IMG/VR virus record: IMGVR_UViG_3300002920_000062
Location: 6,123 to 70,122 of that record
Reading direction: 5' to 3' (one strand)
Length of the DNA stretch: 64,000 nt
Origin: a virus
Shown here: piece after piece, positions 2,800 through 12,239 of the stretch
How the letters are laid out: each line of letters starts with the position of its first letter
How positions within the stretch are numbered: position 1 is the first letter of the stretch
Made by a program: the position numbers and the translations under genes
Notes under the pieces: model-generated
Database searches by the model: none
What the model was told of the DNA's origin: nothing
The model's input: only the letters and a program-made list of their open reading frames with translations

Positions 2800-3207
2800 C
2801 TAGCCCCTACGCATCTTAGCAATATCTTCTGCCTGTTCTTTTGACCAAACAGGCTGTAAATTAGATTTGTGCATGACAGCAATACCAAGTAACTTACGCT
2901 CACCATCATACTTTTTGGCGGGCTTTGCAGGCATATGACCAACCAACAAACCCTCAGATGGATAAAGCTCACGATGGTTACTAGTGTATGTAGGAATCTT
3001 ATTGAGACCTTTTCGTGGTGTGACCTTAGCCTTGCCCTGAATATAGGCAATATATTGTTCAATTGTTTTCTCAGGTAGCCTGCACTTTTTCATGAGCTTG
3101 TTATGCTCACGAAAGTCTTTGACTATCTTATCATTGATAGTCACAGGCTTGTTCTTACGCTTGTGCGTAGAGATAGTGGACAGACGTTTATCTATATGCA
3201 TAGTCAT
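2800..3207 (-). CDS. Conserved T4-like phage hypothetical protein
   Basis: C-terminal GIAVMHKSNLQPV..AEDIAKMRR motif typical of T4-like phages. Confidence 0.75.
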   Translation of the reverse strand: MTMHIDKRLSTISTHKRKNKPVTINDKIVKDFREHNKLMKKCRLPEKTIEQYIAYIQGKAKVTPRKGLNKIPTYTSNHRELYPSEGLLVGHMPAKPAKKYDGERKLLGIAVMHKSNLQPVWSKEQAEDIAKMRRG

Positions 3208-3238
3208 AGCAAGTTTATATCAGACTTTCTGTTTAATG

Positions 3239-3454
3239 TCAATCTAAAGGAATACCGGGATCTACTGAACGTCCCATATAATGATCGTCGGTTACACAGA
3301 AAAATTGAATAGCAAGTTGTTCATTGATATATTTCTTTGCCTCTTCGCCGGCAAGCTTGACACAATCTTCTTTGCTAATAGTAGGAAACTCTTGCTTTTC
3401 TAAAAAATTAGAGGTATATGGATCTAAGATCATTACCAATAGCCAATATTTCAT
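3239..3454 (-). CDS. Small hypothetical protein
   Basis: 71-aa ORF with RBS, hydrophobic N-terminus. Confidence 0.55.
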   Translation of the reverse strand: MKYWLLVMILDPYTSNFLEKQEFPTISKEDCVKLAGEEAKKYINEQLAIQFFCVTDDHYMGRSVDPGIPLD

Positions 3455-3580
3455 TACTTTACTTCCTTTACCGAGTCAGTGTTATCTATCCTTTTGTTTT
3501 CGGTTTGTTATACAAGGATACGTTATGCTTGTTGACACAATATACTCAAAAATACATAATGTCAACAAGCTAATTAAGTT

Positions 3581-4108
3581 TTAACCGTAAAAAATATGAT
3601 TTCCTATTATAGCTAATCTACGCTTTTTCCAGCCTGGATTAGTTCTAGTTGAATGGAAGAACAACGCACCATCCATGTTGTCTAGTGCCCTTCCCTTACT
3701 AAGGATTTTATCGGCTAATTGTTGGCTTTCAGCCCATGCCTTACCTGAAGGTATAGACCAACGCCATGTACGGTTTTTAGTCCAAGAGAATTGATTTCTC
3801 TCGTAAACAACACCGCAAATTGTGTTTTTGAATTTTGGGCTCTTTACCCTGTTGAGCGTTACCTGTGCAACTGCTCGTTTTCCATGTTCATTCTCGCCTC
3901 TAGCCTCATGATAAATGTTCTTAGCTAGGCAGAATTTATCTTTTTCAGTGTAGTTATGTTGAAGCTTACTCGCCTCTTTAAGTTCTTTGACTTGTTTGGG
4001 AATCATGACAATATCATTGCCCTGTATATTTTCAGTCTCAGTGGCTTCGGCACAAGAAGCCAATATCATTGTAAGTGCCGCAAGCAATATCTTTACATTA
4101 AATAGCAT
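3581..4108 (-). CDS. SleB/Hydrolase_2-family cell wall hydrolase
   Basis: CLAKNIYHEARGE, AVAQVTLNRV, QFSW and IGNHIFY motifs; signal/lipoprotein-like N-terminus. Confidence 0.92.
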   Translation of the reverse strand: MLFNVKILLAALTMILASCAEATETENIQGNDIVMIPKQVKELKEASKLQHNYTEKDKFCLAKNIYHEARGENEHGKRAVAQVTLNRVKSPKFKNTICGVVYERNQFSWTKNRTWRWSIPSGKAWAESQQLADKILSKGRALDNMDGALFFHSTRTNPGWKKRRLAIIGNHIFYG

Positions 4109-5713: not shown

Positions 5714-6151
5714 TTATAGAATTTTACCCAAAAGCTCTTTCTGTTTATAGAAAGCTTCAAGCTCCCAAGGAAGATTGCGATACTCCTTGAAAGTCATCCT
5801 AGACTGATCAACTCTATATATCTTGCCCTCCCAAAGAATATTACCGGCCCTAGACACAGCTAACCTTTTTTCATATATCTGGTTAATATGAACCAATTCA
5901 TGTATTAATGGCTCAATTAGCTCCTGTAGCGAAAGCTTATTGCTAAGATGTATGATGTGTTTGGCTAAATGAGTCAAAGGAGTTTCAGCATATACATTAT
6001 TACCAAGATTTAAAAATTTGATAGTTATTTCTTTTGGAAGTGTAATATGTAAAAAAATAGCCCGACATAGACTTGTAACCAATTTGGCTTTGTCTATGTC
6101 GGGCTTGGTTTCAAATTCAATATTGACTTTCATCAATGTATTTATAATCAA
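5714..6151 (-). CDS. Zinc metallopeptidase-like protein (HExxH)
   Basis: LIHELVHINQ..YRNLPWELEAF. Confidence 0.75.
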   Translation of the reverse strand: MIINTLMKVNIEFETKPDIDKAKLVTSLCRAIFLHITLPKEITIKFLNLGNNVYAETPLTHLAKHIIHLSNKLSLQELIEPLIHELVHINQIYEKRLAVSRAGNILWEGKIYRVDQSRMTFKEYRNLPWELEAFYKQKELLGKIL

Positions 6152-6662: not shown

Positions 6663-7418
6663 ATGAGAATACACGAAATTTTAACTGAAAAAGAAGTCAT
6701 TCCTTACCAGTCTGAGCCAATTCACACTGACAAAATTAGTCAACTTGTTGAGTTGGCTAAACAAAATTGCTCGGAATTTTTAGAGAACAACCTCGTTAGT
6801 CCTCTTTGGAGAGGCACCGGCAGAGAACACCCGTACATAAGAATTGTAGATCCTAGTATGGGAGTTAGAAAATCACAAAATACTACTAACCATTATACTG
6901 AATTGATGGATAACTCTCCCTATTATGAAGGATGGCCAAAAAGAGGCAAGTCACTTATCTGTAGCACTTCAAAATACCGGGCTATCGAATACGGAAGATT
7001 GTATGCAGTGTTACCTTTTAACAAAACTAAGATAGCAGTAGCTAGCAAGTCTGATATTTGGTTTACCGACATATATTTCCCAAAACTTGATTGGATTACC
7101 AACTTCTATAAGTTCAATAATTTTATGGGTAATAGAGGTTTGGGATTCCCTGAAAATTACGAAGATATGGTATGGTATAGCAAGAGTGATACTTTCGCCG
7201 ATATCTTTCGTAGAGAATTTTATGATGCATACGACTTTGACCCGTCTAATTTCATAGACTATATACAGAAGTATATGGCACCATACCGAGTTGGGTTCAG
7301 TCTTGAAGATACTTCGTCTTTTAGCACTAACGAATATCCTAAGAAAGAATGTTGGTTTAGTGGCAAATGTATCATAATAGAACAAGACACTTATCAATCA
7401 ATGTTAGAAGCATTTTAG
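6663..7418 (+). CDS. Putative internal head protein with ADP-ribosyltransferase-like fold
   Basis: TAAATA at 6651; MRIHEILTE N-terminus; LWRG..SLICSTS..AIEYG..ECWF; motif-level similarity to the N-terminal domain of 16071..19790. Confidence 0.6.
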   Translation: MRIHEILTEKEVIPYQSEPIHTDKISQLVELAKQNCSEFLENNLVSPLWRGTGREHPYIRIVDPSMGVRKSQNTTNHYTELMDNSPYYEGWPKRGKSLICSTSKYRAIEYGRLYAVLPFNKTKIAVASKSDIWFTDIYFPKLDWITNFYKFNNFMGNRGLGFPENYEDMVWYSKSDTFADIFRREFYDAYDFDPSNFIDYIQKYMAPYRVGFSLEDTSSFSTNEYPKKECWFSGKCIIIEQDTYQSMLEAF

Positions 7419-7654: not shown

Positions 7655-7728
7655 TGGAGCTTCGTATGGGAATCGAACCCATGACCTCAGGATGGAAGCC
7701 TGATACGTTACCTCTACGCCAACGAAGC
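7655..7728 (-). tRNA. tRNA-Gly(TCC)
   Basis: Cloverleaf; TCAGG-CTTCCAT-CCTGA anticodon arm; encoded CCA. Confidence 0.9.
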
Positions 7729-7738
7729 ATCTATATCT

Positions 7739-7809
7739 TGCGGAGGTTCGAATCGAACGAACGTAAGGGTAGCTTATGAGACTCCCGGAGATCCAACACT
7801 CGCTCCGCT
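7739..7809 (-). tRNA. Atypical tRNA with CAT anticodon (Met/fMet-like)
   Basis: GCGGAG/CTCCGC acceptor with 1:72 mismatch, CTCATAA loop, bulged anticodon stem, GTTCG-TTCGATT-CGAAC T arm; no CCA. Confidence 0.55.
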
Positions 7810-7835
7810 ACAATATTTATGCCCACTAGAAAATA

Positions 7836-7920
7836 ACAGCATATTTTCAAAAATATGTATTTTTCTCTGTTATGATCTGAATACAGCATATTTTCAAAAA
7901 TATGTATTTTTCTCTGTTAT
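7836..7920. repeat. 38-bp perfect direct repeat, 2 copies (7836-7873, 7883-7920)
   Basis: acagcatattttcaaaaatatgtatttttctctgttat occurs twice, 9 nt apart. Confidence 0.9.
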
Positions 7921-8205
7921 TCTCTTAGTGTAGATGCCGAATCACTATTCGCTAAAGGGGTCCTTTACGGGTTTTATCTAACAATAGATTCACCGACCCA
8001 AAACAATATTTTCTCTACACTTTATAGTGGGCAAATAGTAGAGTAGTAAATTACTTATGTTTTTTCACATTTACTACGTCAAACTATATAGTCTGTATTT
8101 ATTACAAAGCATGAAATTATTGCTTATTATCTCAAAACTATTCTTATTTTTGATGCTCTTAATATAGTCATTCTTGTTACTAATATCAAGAAGTTTTTGC
8201 ATTTT

Positions 8206-8419
8206 GGAGAAGAAAGAGCAAGTCATAGACAATTCAAACTACAAGGGCATTGCCACTATGCAAAAAACAAGCAACAAACTGCATTGCTGCCTATCTCCCA
8301 ACTTACAACTCACAAATCTGAATAAAAGTTGGAACACGCAAGCTAAACCATTGAAGGCTGTTGCTCAGAGTAGTTATTAAAACTACAAGGATGTCTACTC
8401 TAACCTCTCTTTCTTCCCC
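8206..8419 (-). ncRNA. Unannotated ~215-nt structured RNA downstream of coiled-coil gene
   Basis: Ends form a ~24-bp closing helix with G-U pairs only in minus sense; internal hairpins and UUG-rich segments. Confidence 0.65.
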
Positions 8420-8445
8420 TAAGCGGGGGACTAAGCCCCCTAAAC

Positions 8446-9006
8446 TTACAGAATTCCCTGTTCGTTAAGAACCTTAGCAGCATCATCACTTAAAGTGATG
8501 GTTGCTTGAACGTTCAATTCAAGAAGCTTGTCTTGAAGCTTCTGCTTTTCACGCTTCAAAGTCTTCACTGTCTTACGATAGTTGTCAATCTCTTCCTCAG
8601 TAAATACTGTAGTAGAAACTGTCTTAGGTGAATAAAAAGAAGACTCAGAGTTCCCGGCAATCTTCTTTACCTTGGCTTGAATTACATCAATATTGAAGCC
8701 TGCATTCAGTTGAGCAAGGGTTGAGTTAAACTCAATTTCACGCTCTAGGCGGGCTAAGTCTGCAAGAAGATCGTCAATCTGCATTACAGCATTAGTTCGG
8801 GACACACTCTTACGAATCTCATAAAGAGCATCTAATAAACGCTTGCGAAGCGCAACACGCTCTGCAAACTGTGCCCTAGCGGAACTAAGAGTTTCCTCAA
8901 TTGGCATAAATTCGTCTAGCTCTAATGAGCCTACGGGAGTAGTTTCCTTAATAAGCTCGTTAATTGAAGCTTGAATGGCGTTTGCCTTTCGGAGTGTAAT
9001 CTGCAT
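8446..9006 (-). CDS. Coiled-coil protein (DIP1984-like helical hairpin, tentative)
   Basis: Probable start MQITLRKANAIQ at 9006; C-terminal KQKLQDKLLELNVQATITL. Confidence 0.7.
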   Translation of the reverse strand: MQITLRKANAIQASINELIKETTPVGSLELDEFMPIEETLSSARAQFAERVALRKRLLDALYEIRKSVSRTNAVMQIDDLLADLARLEREIEFNSTLAQLNAGFNIDVIQAKVKKIAGNSESSFYSPKTVSTTVFTEEEIDNYRKTVKTLKREKQKLQDKLLELNVQATITLSDDAAKVLNEQGIL

Positions 9007-9073
9007 TTTTTCTTTCTCTATTGAGACTTGATTATAACTAAAAGACACTGAGAATTCAACTATTAAGGGTGAC

Positions 9074-9514
9074 TTATATACCCATGTCGACAAGAATTTG
9101 ATTTACGTCTTGTGGATTGAAACTTCCCTTATAGTTTTGGTTCATATTCTTCATGACAAAGCCACGAAGAGCCTTGCCCTCAGGGCCCTCGTTAACCAAA
9201 TTAGTAACAATAGTATTTAATTCATCTTTAGACAACTGTTGAGGGAGATACTCAGATAATACACTAATTTCAAAATTAAACTTAGCTACGTCACGGTTAG
9301 CCTTGATGGCAAAATCTTTGGTATCGTTCGCGTCCTTAATCATTTTTTTCACTGCTTGGATAACATCATGATCAGTGACTTCACGGTTCTTGTCGTTTTT
9401 GGCAATCAGCTTTGCCCTTGAAATCAAATGCGAAAGAACGTTTTTACGCTCTTTATTGCCTGCTTTCAAGGAAGCAAGCATGTCAGTTTGGACTTTAGCA
9501 AGCATTTCGCTCAT
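9074..9514 (-). CDS. GatB/YqeY domain protein
   Basis: Start MSEMLAKVQ after AAGGA; EISVLSEYLPQQLS motif; the ORF-track extension overlaps a tRNA. Confidence 0.88.
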   Translation of the reverse strand: MSEMLAKVQTDMLASLKAGNKERKNVLSHLISRAKLIAKNDKNREVTDHDVIQAVKKMIKDANDTKDFAIKANRDVAKFNFEISVLSEYLPQQLSKDELNTIVTNLVNEGPEGKALRGFVMKNMNQNYKGSFNPQDVNQILVDMGI

Positions 9515-9532
9515 TTTACTTTTCCTTAGAAT

Positions 9533-9603
9533 TGGTGGCTCTGGGTAGAATTGAACTAACCTTAGCACCCTTATGAGAGGCACCTCACACCCTGGTCAGA
9601 GCC
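9533..9603 (-). tRNA. tRNA(CAT) with reduced D arm
   Basis: GGCTCTG/CAGAGCC acceptor, CTCATAA loop, TTCAATT T loop, ACCA end; 71 nt. Confidence 0.6.
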
Positions 9604-10881: not shown

Positions 10882-12099
10882 TTAGCCCTTGACACAAACC
10901 ACTTGCTTAAGAGTGTGGATAATATCAACCAAGTCTGCCTGAGCGACCATTACTTGATCAATGTCCTTGTAGGCAAGGGGAGTTTCGTCGATGACTCCCT
11001 CATCCTTCCTGCATTCAACACCCTGAGTAGCAGCAACATGGTCCTTCAAAGTAAACCTACGTTTTGCTTCTTCTCGGCTCATGGCACGACCTGCACCGTG
11101 TGAGCAAGAACAAAACGACTCATGGTTACCCTTGCCACGAACAATGTACGAACGAGTGCCCATTGAACCAGGGATTATCCCAAGCTCGTTCAACTGAGCC
11201 GATACCGGACCCTTACGGGTAACTAGGATATCCTCACCAAAATGCTTTTCCTTAGAAACATAGTTGTGATGACACTGAACAGCAAGAAGTTCGGTATGGA
11301 ACGGCTTAGAAATGACACTTCTAATAGCATCAATTGCTGCTTCCATCATAACCTCACGATTACTCTGGGCAAAATCTTGTGCCCATAAGACTGCTTGCAT
11401 GTAATCGTTAAAGTGGTCGGTTCCTTCAGGAATATAAGCGAGGTCGATGTCAGGAAGATTTATGAACCACTTACGCATATCCTGTTTAGCCAATTCAATG
11501 AAATAACTACCGATCCTGTTGCCGATACCACGAGAACCAGAATGAAGCATGATCCAAACATAATCTTCTTCGTCAAGACACACTTCAACAAAGTGATTAC
11601 CTGAACCAAGAGTTCCAAAGTGGTTTATTGACCTTTCTGCGGCCGACTTAATCTTGGGGTGCTTGTCAATAATATCCTTCAAGTTTTTTTCATGAGCCGC
11701 AAACTTTACAATAACACTTTCAGCGGGATTAGTCCAAGCTCCCCTGTCATTCTTCCCGCCATTATCAGTCCGTCCATGAGGAATTCTAGACTCAATTACA
11801 GAACGAATACCAAAAAGGTTATCGGGCAGATCTTCTGCACGAAGGCTAGTGCGGCGAGCCATCATTCCGCAACCGATATCTACTCCAACTGCTGCCGGAA
11901 TCACAGCGCCGATCGTCGGGATTACTGAACCCACAGTAGCTTCCATACCCCAGTGTACATCTGGCATAATAGCTACATGTTTATAAATAAACGGCATAGC
12001 GGCAATATTGTCAAGCTGATGACAAGCTTCCCGTTCAACCTGAACGCCGTCTACCCATGCTTTAATAAGCCCGCCCTTACTTCCTCTAATAACCTGCAT
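10882..12099 (-). CDS. rtcB: RtcB RNA 2',3'-cyclic phosphate/5'-OH ligase
   Basis: MPDVH, VGVDIGCG, GTLGSGNHF, HSGSRG, HHNY, PGSMG and SHGAGR motifs; likely start MQVIRG at 12099. Confidence 0.96.
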   Translation of the reverse strand: MQVIRGSKGGLIKAWVDGVQVEREACHQLDNIAAMPFIYKHVAIMPDVHWGMEATVGSVIPTIGAVIPAAVGVDIGCGMMARRTSLRAEDLPDNLFGIRSVIESRIPHGRTDNGGKNDRGAWTNPAESVIVKFAAHEKNLKDIIDKHPKIKSAAERSINHFGTLGSGNHFVEVCLDEEDYVWIMLHSGSRGIGNRIGSYFIELAKQDMRKWFINLPDIDLAYIPEGTDHFNDYMQAVLWAQDFAQSNREVMMEAAIDAIRSVISKPFHTELLAVQCHHNYVSKEKHFGEDILVTRKGPVSAQLNELGIIPGSMGTRSYIVRGKGNHESFCSCSHGAGRAMSREEAKRRFTLKDHVAATQGVECRKDEGVIDETPLAYKDIDQVMVAQADLVDIIHTLKQVVCVKG

Positions 12100-12132
12100 A
12101 ATTACTTCCTTACTATGTACCTTGTTTATAGC

Positions 12133-12239
12133 AGAATGGGTGAGTTTTGACAACACGGCTATTCAAAATATTTGGTACAGTGTGTTCTCTATACACTTTT
12201 GAATAAACTTGCTGTTTTATTTGAAGCTCAAACCATTCC
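12133..12239 (-). promoter_or_regulatory. Long stem-loop in rtcB leader
   Basis: Nested helices GAAUGG/CCAUUC, UGAG/CUCA, UAUUCAAAA/UUUUGAAUA. Confidence 0.5.

Follow-up and report, generated by a model that had tools for sequence, protein, structure and literature searches.

A structured giant-phage RNA with a phased UG array, coupled to a gene for a helical protein

Does the DNA behind a gene for a 186-aa protein in a giant phage encode a structured RNA, and do this RNA and the protein work together? The question is raised by a window of 64 kb, i.e. the whole stretch of DNA analysed here, which covers positions 6,123 to 70,122 of the IMG/VR record IMGVR_UViG_3300002920_000062; the record is 179 kb long and ~52% complete. 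An earlier note made from the letters of the window had proposed a closed RNA with UUG repeats behind the gene, on which the protein may oligomerise. We found that a structured RNA is encoded at positions 8206-8442 (minus strand), that it belongs to an undescribed RNA family of phages, with members of ~240-310 nt, and that this RNA and the protein family are coupled far beyond chance, obligately and independently of their order.

The structured RNA and its family

The whole structured RNA, i.e. a hairpin (P0) plus a domain closed by a long helix (P1), occupies 8206..8442 of the minus strand, as outlined by its fold, the covariance model R1, covariation and the lack of an Rfam family. It is 237 nt long including P0, and its closed part measures 214 nt, in agreement with the ~215 nt of the earlier note. 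The minus strand of 8206-8442 folds with -88.8 kcal/mol and z -5.23, with 0 of 200 shuffles as good, while the plus strand is weaker with -61.1 kcal/mol and z -3.5. This preference is consistent with G-U pairs on the minus strand only; the note had remarked that these pairs work in the minus sense alone.

The model R1 was made from the stretches downstream of 9 relatives of the gene, using a consensus structure from their single-sequence folds. In 84 sources it found 82 matches, without exception on the same strand as the 186-aa gene, and the window copy scores 209.5 bits (E 6e-50). In the alignment fitted to R1, which holds 65 distinct sequences, 87.2% of the paired cells can pair vs 67.8% after shuffling and 37-48% with the partners slid by 1-3 columns, and compensatory double changes were observed at 50 of the 53 pairs. 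A conserved covarying structure thus lies downstream of the homologues. Two independent checks were made: mutual information with average product correction (APC) puts the R1 pairs on top, and a MAFFT alignment of six cultured-phage versions has double changes at 21 of 54 pairs.

No Rfam family matches the window RNA or its relatives. With Rfam 15 at the gathering threshold only tRNAs reach it over the whole window, and with E up to 10 over 7800-9100 the best match is PrrB_RsmZ, with 19.5 bits vs 44 required and mostly over the coding region; the relatives L003, L090, L092 and L093 gave no match. Our literature search found no paper describing the RNA family, which is not proof that none exists. 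We conclude that a genuine, conserved RNA is encoded, specific to one strand and listed in no catalogue.

The family has a common architecture, in which P0 abuts a purine/pyrimidine closing helix of 22-27 bp that encloses three to four hairpins and a long unpaired strand. In the window the stop codon of the gene (8446-8448) is followed by P0, a GC hairpin at 8425..8442 (minus) directly 5' of P1, whose 5' strand begins 26 nt past the stop, all as placed earlier. The seven pairs of P0 all have double changes and are 83% paired. The hairpin reads GGGGG-CUUAGU-CCCCC here, and no U-run comes after it; most relatives have (U)UUGGUAG...CUACC, i.e. UUUGGUAG...CUACC. P1 is made of a purine-rich 5' strand (8392..8419, minus, by the family alignment) and a pyrimidine-rich 3' strand (8206..8231, minus), with 13 outer pairs, a conserved internal loop and 9 inner pairs. 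These two helices, numbers 2 and 3 of the model, are 95% and 92% paired, with compensatory changes at 22 of 22 pairs. The closing helix of ~24 bp that had been drawn between 8419-8393 and 8230-8206 is therefore sound in its pairing; its length comes to 22 pairs in the family model, three of them G-U or U-G.

Inside P1, the GUAGUU/AACUAC hairpin pointed out before turns out to be a family helix (P2, 8370..8386, minus) with five pairs, all with double changes, and the pair with the highest mutual information falls in it. The variable hairpin region P3 (8340..8366, minus) lies outside the covariance model and is taken from single-sequence folds alone, which form a hairpin there in 9 of 9 relatives. 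The domain P4-P5-P5a (8287..8341, minus) contains the first two units of the UG array and then a conserved A-rich AUA bulge; its helices 5-7 are 85-97% paired and helix 8 (P5a) 59%. The UCCAACUU/AAGUUGGG helix of the earlier reading is P5 (8332-8297), again with compensatory changes in the family. The last helix, number 9, is the mini-hairpin P6 (8246..8254, minus), which divides the UG array; it is bigger in most relatives and missing from the versions in Caulobacter and Brevundimonas phages. Two other proposals fared less well. The supposed AUGCA/UGCAU helix is unpaired in the family model, and its strands are invariant UG units in which covariation is unreadable. The repetition of CCUUGUAGUUU does occur in the window (15 nt, 93%), but it has no conservation in relatives and is peculiar to the studied phage.

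The phased UG array and known systems

The most conserved feature of the RNA is the UUG at 7-nt spacing that had first drawn attention; the spacing is real, and UG is its constant part. There are eight UG dinucleotides, mostly as UUGY, in exact 7-nt phase and in three blocks, at 8314/13, 8307/06, 8283/82, 8276/75, 8269/68, 8262/61, 8243/42 and 8236/35 (minus). The P5a hairpin contains two of them and the unpaired strand four (block B, 8261..8283, minus, UGCAGUU UGUUGCU UGUUUUU UG, with U and G invariant in 65 of 65 sequences), and the last two, UGUAGUUUG, lie after P6 (block C, units 7 and 8, 8235..8243, minus). The 65 distinct sequences share seven of the eight units without exception; the first unit falls in a gap in 20 of them and is UG in the 45 that align. 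Spacers and most helices are variable. A single instance of TG-N4-TTG-N4-TTG-N4-TTG is present in the 64-kb window, where 0.04 would be expected. Mutual information with APC correction gave no pseudoknot, long-range or covarying partner for the units or their spacers, which argues that the UG units are conserved as sequence.

Invariant triplets at fixed spacing in unpaired RNA, as HutP and TRAP read them, are present in the UG array; in TRAP targets the triplets are spaced by 2-3 nt. HutP sites consist of three XAG with 4-nt spacers, and two sites are read by the two faces of the hexamer (PMC2425495). The hut leader thus resembles our RNA in having short invariant triplets in unpaired RNA, a period of 3+4 = 7 nt and units split into blocks. 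The differences are that the motif is UUG/UG here and XAG or GAG there, that our array lies inside a closed multi-helix stable RNA and theirs in a terminator-switching leader, and that the candidate protein is an all-helical predicted dimer of neither HutP nor TRAP fold with no ligand control evident. In a screen of the adjacent protein alone, no HutP or TRAP (MtrB) Pfam family matched at E up to 10.

VIPR is the second system with a related layout. Its vrRNA has 9-16 YNNGG repeats with hypervariable NN, and Vipr consists of an RRM core, a G-loop and a thumb, i.e. is a RAMP protein (bioRxiv 10.64898/2026.04.26.720920); Vipr protomers are reported to oligomerise along the RNA (the same preprint and bioRxiv 10.64898/2026.04.26.720927). 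Both systems are phage-encoded, with a gene flanked up- or downstream by a noncoding RNA of short phased repeats plus a structured remainder. Unlike the GGY/NN repeats of 5 nt in 9-16 units, ours are of 7 nt in 6-8 units with spacers that are not hypervariable; the 186-aa protein is all-helical in contrast to the RRM/RAMP protein Vipr, and our loci have no conserved vap-like accessory gene and one RNA per genome. We therefore rejected membership in VIPR, as the AlphaFold2 model is helical, Pfam scans gave no RRM or RAMP family, and the repeats differ from the VIPR type.

GOLLD, ROOL and OLE are, like our RNA, large conserved structured RNAs of unknown function. OLE also has a dedicated adjacent protein partner, according to PMC3413148, and GOLLD shares the same phage tRNA islands in L002, L003 and L005, loci of related jumbo phages, within ~0.7-3.5 kb of the gene-RNA module. 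There GOLLD (RF02032) was found at L002:7548-8010, L003:2848-3314 and L005:2117-2581 with 186-206 bits, apart from the UG-array RNA. Our RNA differs from the three in having no Rfam match, in being far smaller and in its phased UG array, which has no counterpart there. We found no RF02032 match of at least 150 bits in the window or in its own record, in a record-wide search whose control matched nowhere.

Two more candidates were tried and rejected. A type III toxin-antitoxin system (ToxIN-like) does not agree with the data: no ~34-36-nt tandem repeats were seen on reading the sequence, with no tandem-repeat program used, the sole phased unit is of 7 nt and lies in one closed fold, and no ToxN/AbiQ family was matched by the protein. 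The nearby rtcB prompted us to consider Y RNA with Ro60 (Rsr); the 179-kb record, at its ~52% completeness, has no TROVE domain, by a search whose control matched in Deinococcus and Bacteroides, and no Y RNA family matched.

The partner gene, its protein and their linkage to the RNA

The 186-aa gene lies at 8446..9006 (minus) with its ATG at 9006. A word-indexed search gave 480 homologues, nearly all of 185-190 aa and starting with MxITLRKANA, many of which sit on contigs of 325-373 kb; a profile search extends the family to 1528 clusters at 50% identity. Pfam, PHROG and NCBIfam gave no match for the protein, megablast and tblastn with the window's own sequences gave no match in cultured phages, and an IMG/VR scan with the single protein gave no relatives; these came solely through the family profile.

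The gene and the RNA are found together in two orders. The gene precedes the RNA in ~65 loci, with the RNA starting 0-424 nt past the stop codon, and the RNA precedes the gene in ~12 loci, with a gap of 15-243 nt to the start codon; some of the longer gaps contain unrelated small open reading frames (ORFs). In L071 the module is duplicated in tandem (575-1442 and 3103-3971), and each RNA lies 15-18 nt upstream of its gene copy. Exactly one RNA copy, beside the gene, is present in the record that contains the window and in each of five genomes of 328-361 kb that are complete or nearly so; none of these six whole records gave a copy away from the gene. An IMG/VR scan with a pattern of the RNA only gave mostly chance matches, and all five true members adjoin the gene, two of them on new contigs with the RNA first. 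The bacterial genome collection gave only two matches, both on short contigs of metagenome-assembled genomes with both gene and RNA. Three loci lack an R1 match: L060 has a divergent copy that R1 missed, with the UG array recognised by eye and pattern, the contig of L035 ends 247 nt after the gene, and L085 has no clear RNA copy.

A conserved third protein was looked for and rejected, as the small ORFs beside the RNA belong to different families and none is present in the window. In one clade with the RNA first (L065:439-678, L070:2774-3001, also L056 and L086) the gap of 215-243 nt encodes a protein of 71-80 aa of the RNA polymerase Rpb6/omega family (PF01192, E 5e-11 to 8e-13), and in another clade a 139-aa ORF occupies the gap between gene and RNA. 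As a separate observation, the gaps of 336-347 nt between gene and RNA in L003:4568-4914, L005:4568-4912 and L057:3574-3909 have no ORF over 55 aa; they are GC-richer (0.46-0.48), fold strongly, share short conserved blocks between clades and have no Rfam match. These gaps may represent a second undescribed RNA domain.

The linkage reaches cultured phages. A structure search with the protein model led to an uncharacterised protein of the Caulobacter phage CcrColossus, gp272, which the family profile matches with E 6.5e-16. Behind gp272, and before gp273, is an unannotated gap of 284 nt (JX100810 201299-201582), which folds with z -4.6 into the same P0 and long closing helix and contains six UUG units at 7-nt phase. 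Homologues are also encoded in CcrPW and in seven Brevundimonas jumbo phages (312-357 kb), and five further cultured phages that we read have the same gap, of 286-314 nt. Their arrays are continuous, without P6, and often have GUG or CUG, which indicates that UG is the constant part. Protein identity between cultured phages goes down to ~30% with the linkage kept. The whole-record search of the cultured phages with R1 gave no match. These RNAs are probably distant members of the family, an assignment based on position, architecture and UG array because the R1 scores are marginal. We also observed an acidic protein of 81-82 aa, without a Pfam family, which is always 3' of the cultured-phage RNA (L090:4084-4329, L092:2063-2308, L093:2111-2359); it is unrelated to the omega-like ORF and has no counterpart in the window.

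The AlphaFold2 model of the 186-aa protein (pLDDT, i.e. predicted local distance difference test, 88.5) is all-helical, apart from two strands of three residues, one N-terminal and one C-terminal, that pair together. The earlier note had guessed at a DIP1984-like protein, and PDB entry 3kdq (DIP1984, of DUF6847, PF20935, often annotated as 'septicolysin') is indeed the top match in both structure searches (Foldseek E 6.4e-3, TM 0.40-0.47). The match is weak: VIA gives a root mean square deviation of 8.4 A over 143/152 residues with Z 10.4, where Z under ~13 is not decisive for helical proteins; over the comparisons the deviation is 8.4-9.9 A, and such a Z is within the chance range for helical bundles. 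PF20935 (cut-off 27 bits) is present in 19% of the members of one large Atlas cluster of viral proteins, and this cluster matches with TM 0.70/0.86 over 147 residues. Membership in DUF6847 by sequence did not hold up, with no PF20935 match at E up to 10 in 24 of 24 family members and none in a six-frame search of the own record, the control of which matched in four genomes. The protein may thus be called DIP1984-like, weakly and in fold only. Neither a function nor an RNA partner of DUF6847 is known to us, and the resemblance therefore sheds no light on the mechanism.

Complex prediction supports a dimer. With four copies the predicted self-association is 0.64 vs 0.09 for the best control, a mark that, in a calibration with two copies rather than the four used here, was reached by 20 of 30 homodimers and 1 of 23 monomers of solved structure. 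At least 85% of the contacts recur between the runs, partner pLDDT is 84 or higher, and the predicted interface is an antiparallel pairing of residues ~24-135. Of the oligomerisation on a periodic RNA that had been suggested, the self-association is thus favoured by the model. The most conserved residues, i.e. R6, K7, N9, Q12, N16, K151, K154, Q155, Q158, D159 and N165, are outside the predicted interface.

Transcription signals suggest that gene and RNA share a transcript. A promoter-like TTGAAT-N17-TATAAT is located between the YqeY-like gene and the 186-aa gene (9031..9059, minus); it has 10 of 12 consensus matches and no other basis, the region's count of such sites being no higher than in shuffles, and the transcript of gene and RNA probably starts there. 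Just 3' of the RNA is another consensus match, TTGATA-N17-TATATT (8161..8189, minus), which by its sequence would mark the next transcription unit, toward tRNA-Met and tRNA-Gly. Many relatives have (GTTC)TTGACA in the same place, and of 61 distinct loci 23 have TTGACW no more than 90 nt away. In 32 of these 61 loci P1 is followed by a run of at least five U, which the window copy lacks; in others a terminator hairpin of its own, a tRNA gene or the partner gene comes next. R1 mostly starts right at the stop codon, so that in these loci no space is left for a promoter of the RNA's own. We infer that it is co-transcribed with the 186-aa gene and is probably processed to a stable species.

What the gene and the RNA may form

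We consider the chances about even that the gene and the RNA form an undescribed ribonucleoprotein (RNP), with protein units docking on the UG heptads; this is the simplest account of the data, and it has analogies in HutP on XAG triplets and Vipr protomers on GGY/NN repeats. In this mechanism the RNA would be transcribed with the 186-aa gene from the site at 9059-9031, and the protein would dimerise in antiparallel fashion through its long helical hairpin (residues ~36-100). The dimers would dock on the UG heptads through a conserved polar/basic cluster of the N- and C-termini (LRKANAxQ..INE plus KRxKQKLQDxLLELN), which takes no part in the interface predicted for the dimer; scaffolding of the RNA and shielding of its ends would fall to the closed P0/P1 helix, and the product would be a discrete RNP with one RNA per genome. 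Rather more tentatively, with chances somewhat short of even, we propose a new class of phage RNP, in which a DUF6847-like helical protein polymerises in register on a 7-nt UG ruler within a closed scaffold. This would be a reading of periodic RNA unrelated to TRAP, HutP, RAMP and Sm proteins, with a function specific to giant siphophages. It could, e.g., control transcription or RNA metabolism, be it of the host or of the phage; the omega-like gene inside the module in one clade comes to mind here.

Several points weigh against an RNP. A dimer offers two equivalent sites vs eight UG units, a stoichiometry left unexplained, and the protein is mildly acidic, with an isoelectric point of 5-6.5 for 23 of 24 members, a property that speaks against a generic RNA binder. 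Pfam and structure searches found no recognisable RNA-binding fold or domain, and co-transcription alone could hold the gene and the RNA together. The covariation statistics come from an alignment that favours R1, being fitted to it. On the cultured-phage RNAs R1 hits the right place with marginal scores only (E 0.085 in CcrPW and 2.5 in CcrColossus, with filters off).

Some of these points speak for an RNA that acts without the protein, either as a decoy or sponge whose UG heptads soak up a nuclease or RNA-binding protein of the host, or by assembling with itself as an ornate RNA in the manner of GOLLD and ROOL, with the gene merely a mate in the transcription unit or a regulator. We consider this unlikely but worth serious attention: the partner protein is acidic and without an RNA-binding domain, the RNA sits in tRNA arrays and near GOLLD in relatives, tRNA genes follow it directly 3' in several loci as with other processed stable phage RNAs, and GOLLD and ROOL are RNA-only assemblies according to bioRxiv 10.1101/2024.12.08.627333. 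It is at odds with a linkage that persists through inversion of the order, inserted ORFs, tandem duplication and divergence of the protein to ~30%, with the lack of any RNA copy apart from the gene in six whole records, and with GOLLD, which has no such fixed gene partner in these loci. A cis-acting element in the mRNA of the 186-aa gene, serving as a 3' stabiliser, terminator or autoregulatory operator, appears improbable to us. The start of the RNA at the stop codon in most loci, the U-runs after P1 in about half of the distinct loci, and the end of the RNA 15-22 nt ahead of the start codon where the RNA comes first would all suit such an element, but the RNA occurs both up- and downstream of the gene, even with ORFs of 80-140 aa in between, several loci have separate canonical terminators 3' of it, and the window copy has no U-run at all. 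Moreover, a multi-helix fold of ~250 nt with eight invariant phased units far exceeds the needs of a stabiliser or operator.

We assign a very small probability to a non-contiguous guide RNA like the VIPR vrRNA, in which protomers would hold UUGY and the 3-nt spacers would jointly read a gapped target. Phased repeats with an invariant and a variable part, an adjacent phage gene and a structured remainder are found here as in vrRNAs (bioRxiv 10.64898/2026.04.26.720920). The spacers, however, are not hypervariable, with 0.11 changes per site vs 0.09 at other unpaired sites (among sequences at least 90% identical), and those of the window are U-rich and of low complexity; the units number only 6-8, a genome has a single RNA and no array of them, and the protein is all-helical rather than RAMP/RRM. 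Still less credit goes to an element at the DNA level, i.e. a phased TG array bound by a protein, an origin or a packaging site, for which it can be said that phased TG/CA steps are conceivable targets of a DNA-binding protein and that no known fold has been assigned to the neighbouring protein. Against it, compensatory changes keep Watson-Crick or G-U pairs between strands ~190-210 nt apart, the G-U pairs are on one strand only, and the orientation to the gene is fixed in 82 of 82 R1 matches.

The neighbourhood in the giant phage has been read as one of tRNA and RNA repair. This is true of the window, which encodes 16 tRNA genes, an RtcB ligase (10882-12156, minus), a YqeY-like protein (9074-9583, minus) and, 3' of the RNA, tRNA-Met and tRNA-Gly (7655-7810), and it is true of several metagenomic loci, with tRNA genes directly 3' of the RNA in some of them. 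In the cultured Caulobacter and Brevundimonas phages no tRNA was found near the module within the stretches read, and the neighbours differ, so this setting is not part of the system. Two further observations concern the window. A 251-aa ORF at 6663-7418 (plus) is on the strand opposite to its neighbours and has no Pfam family, with only the N-terminal third of phrog_12810 (unknown function) matched at E 1.5e-30. The ~380 nt at 7811-8190 (minus), between the RNA and tRNA-Met/tRNA-Gly, are AT-rich without a convincing ORF and are probably the leader of the tRNA transcript because a promoter-like site lies at their beginning.

As to the role of a possible RNP, the frequent placement in islands of tRNA and translation-factor genes gives a weak hint, and the omega-like ORF adjoining the module in one clade gives another weak one. 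Few structured RNA families of such size and with such support from covariation are still being found outside Rfam, and the partner protein family of 1528 clusters is equally uncharacterised. The RNA adds a defined member to the poorly understood stable RNAs of phage tRNA islands, such as GOLLD and the T4 species I and II. Its recognition signature is unusually explicit, with eight UG marks every 7 nt. Because some of the phages that have the RNA grow in culture on Caulobacter crescentus and Brevundimonas, the RNP hypothesis is directly testable. If the protein does read the UG ruler, this would be a new mode of periodic RNA recognition and would give the first functional handle on the DUF6847/DIP1984-like proteins.

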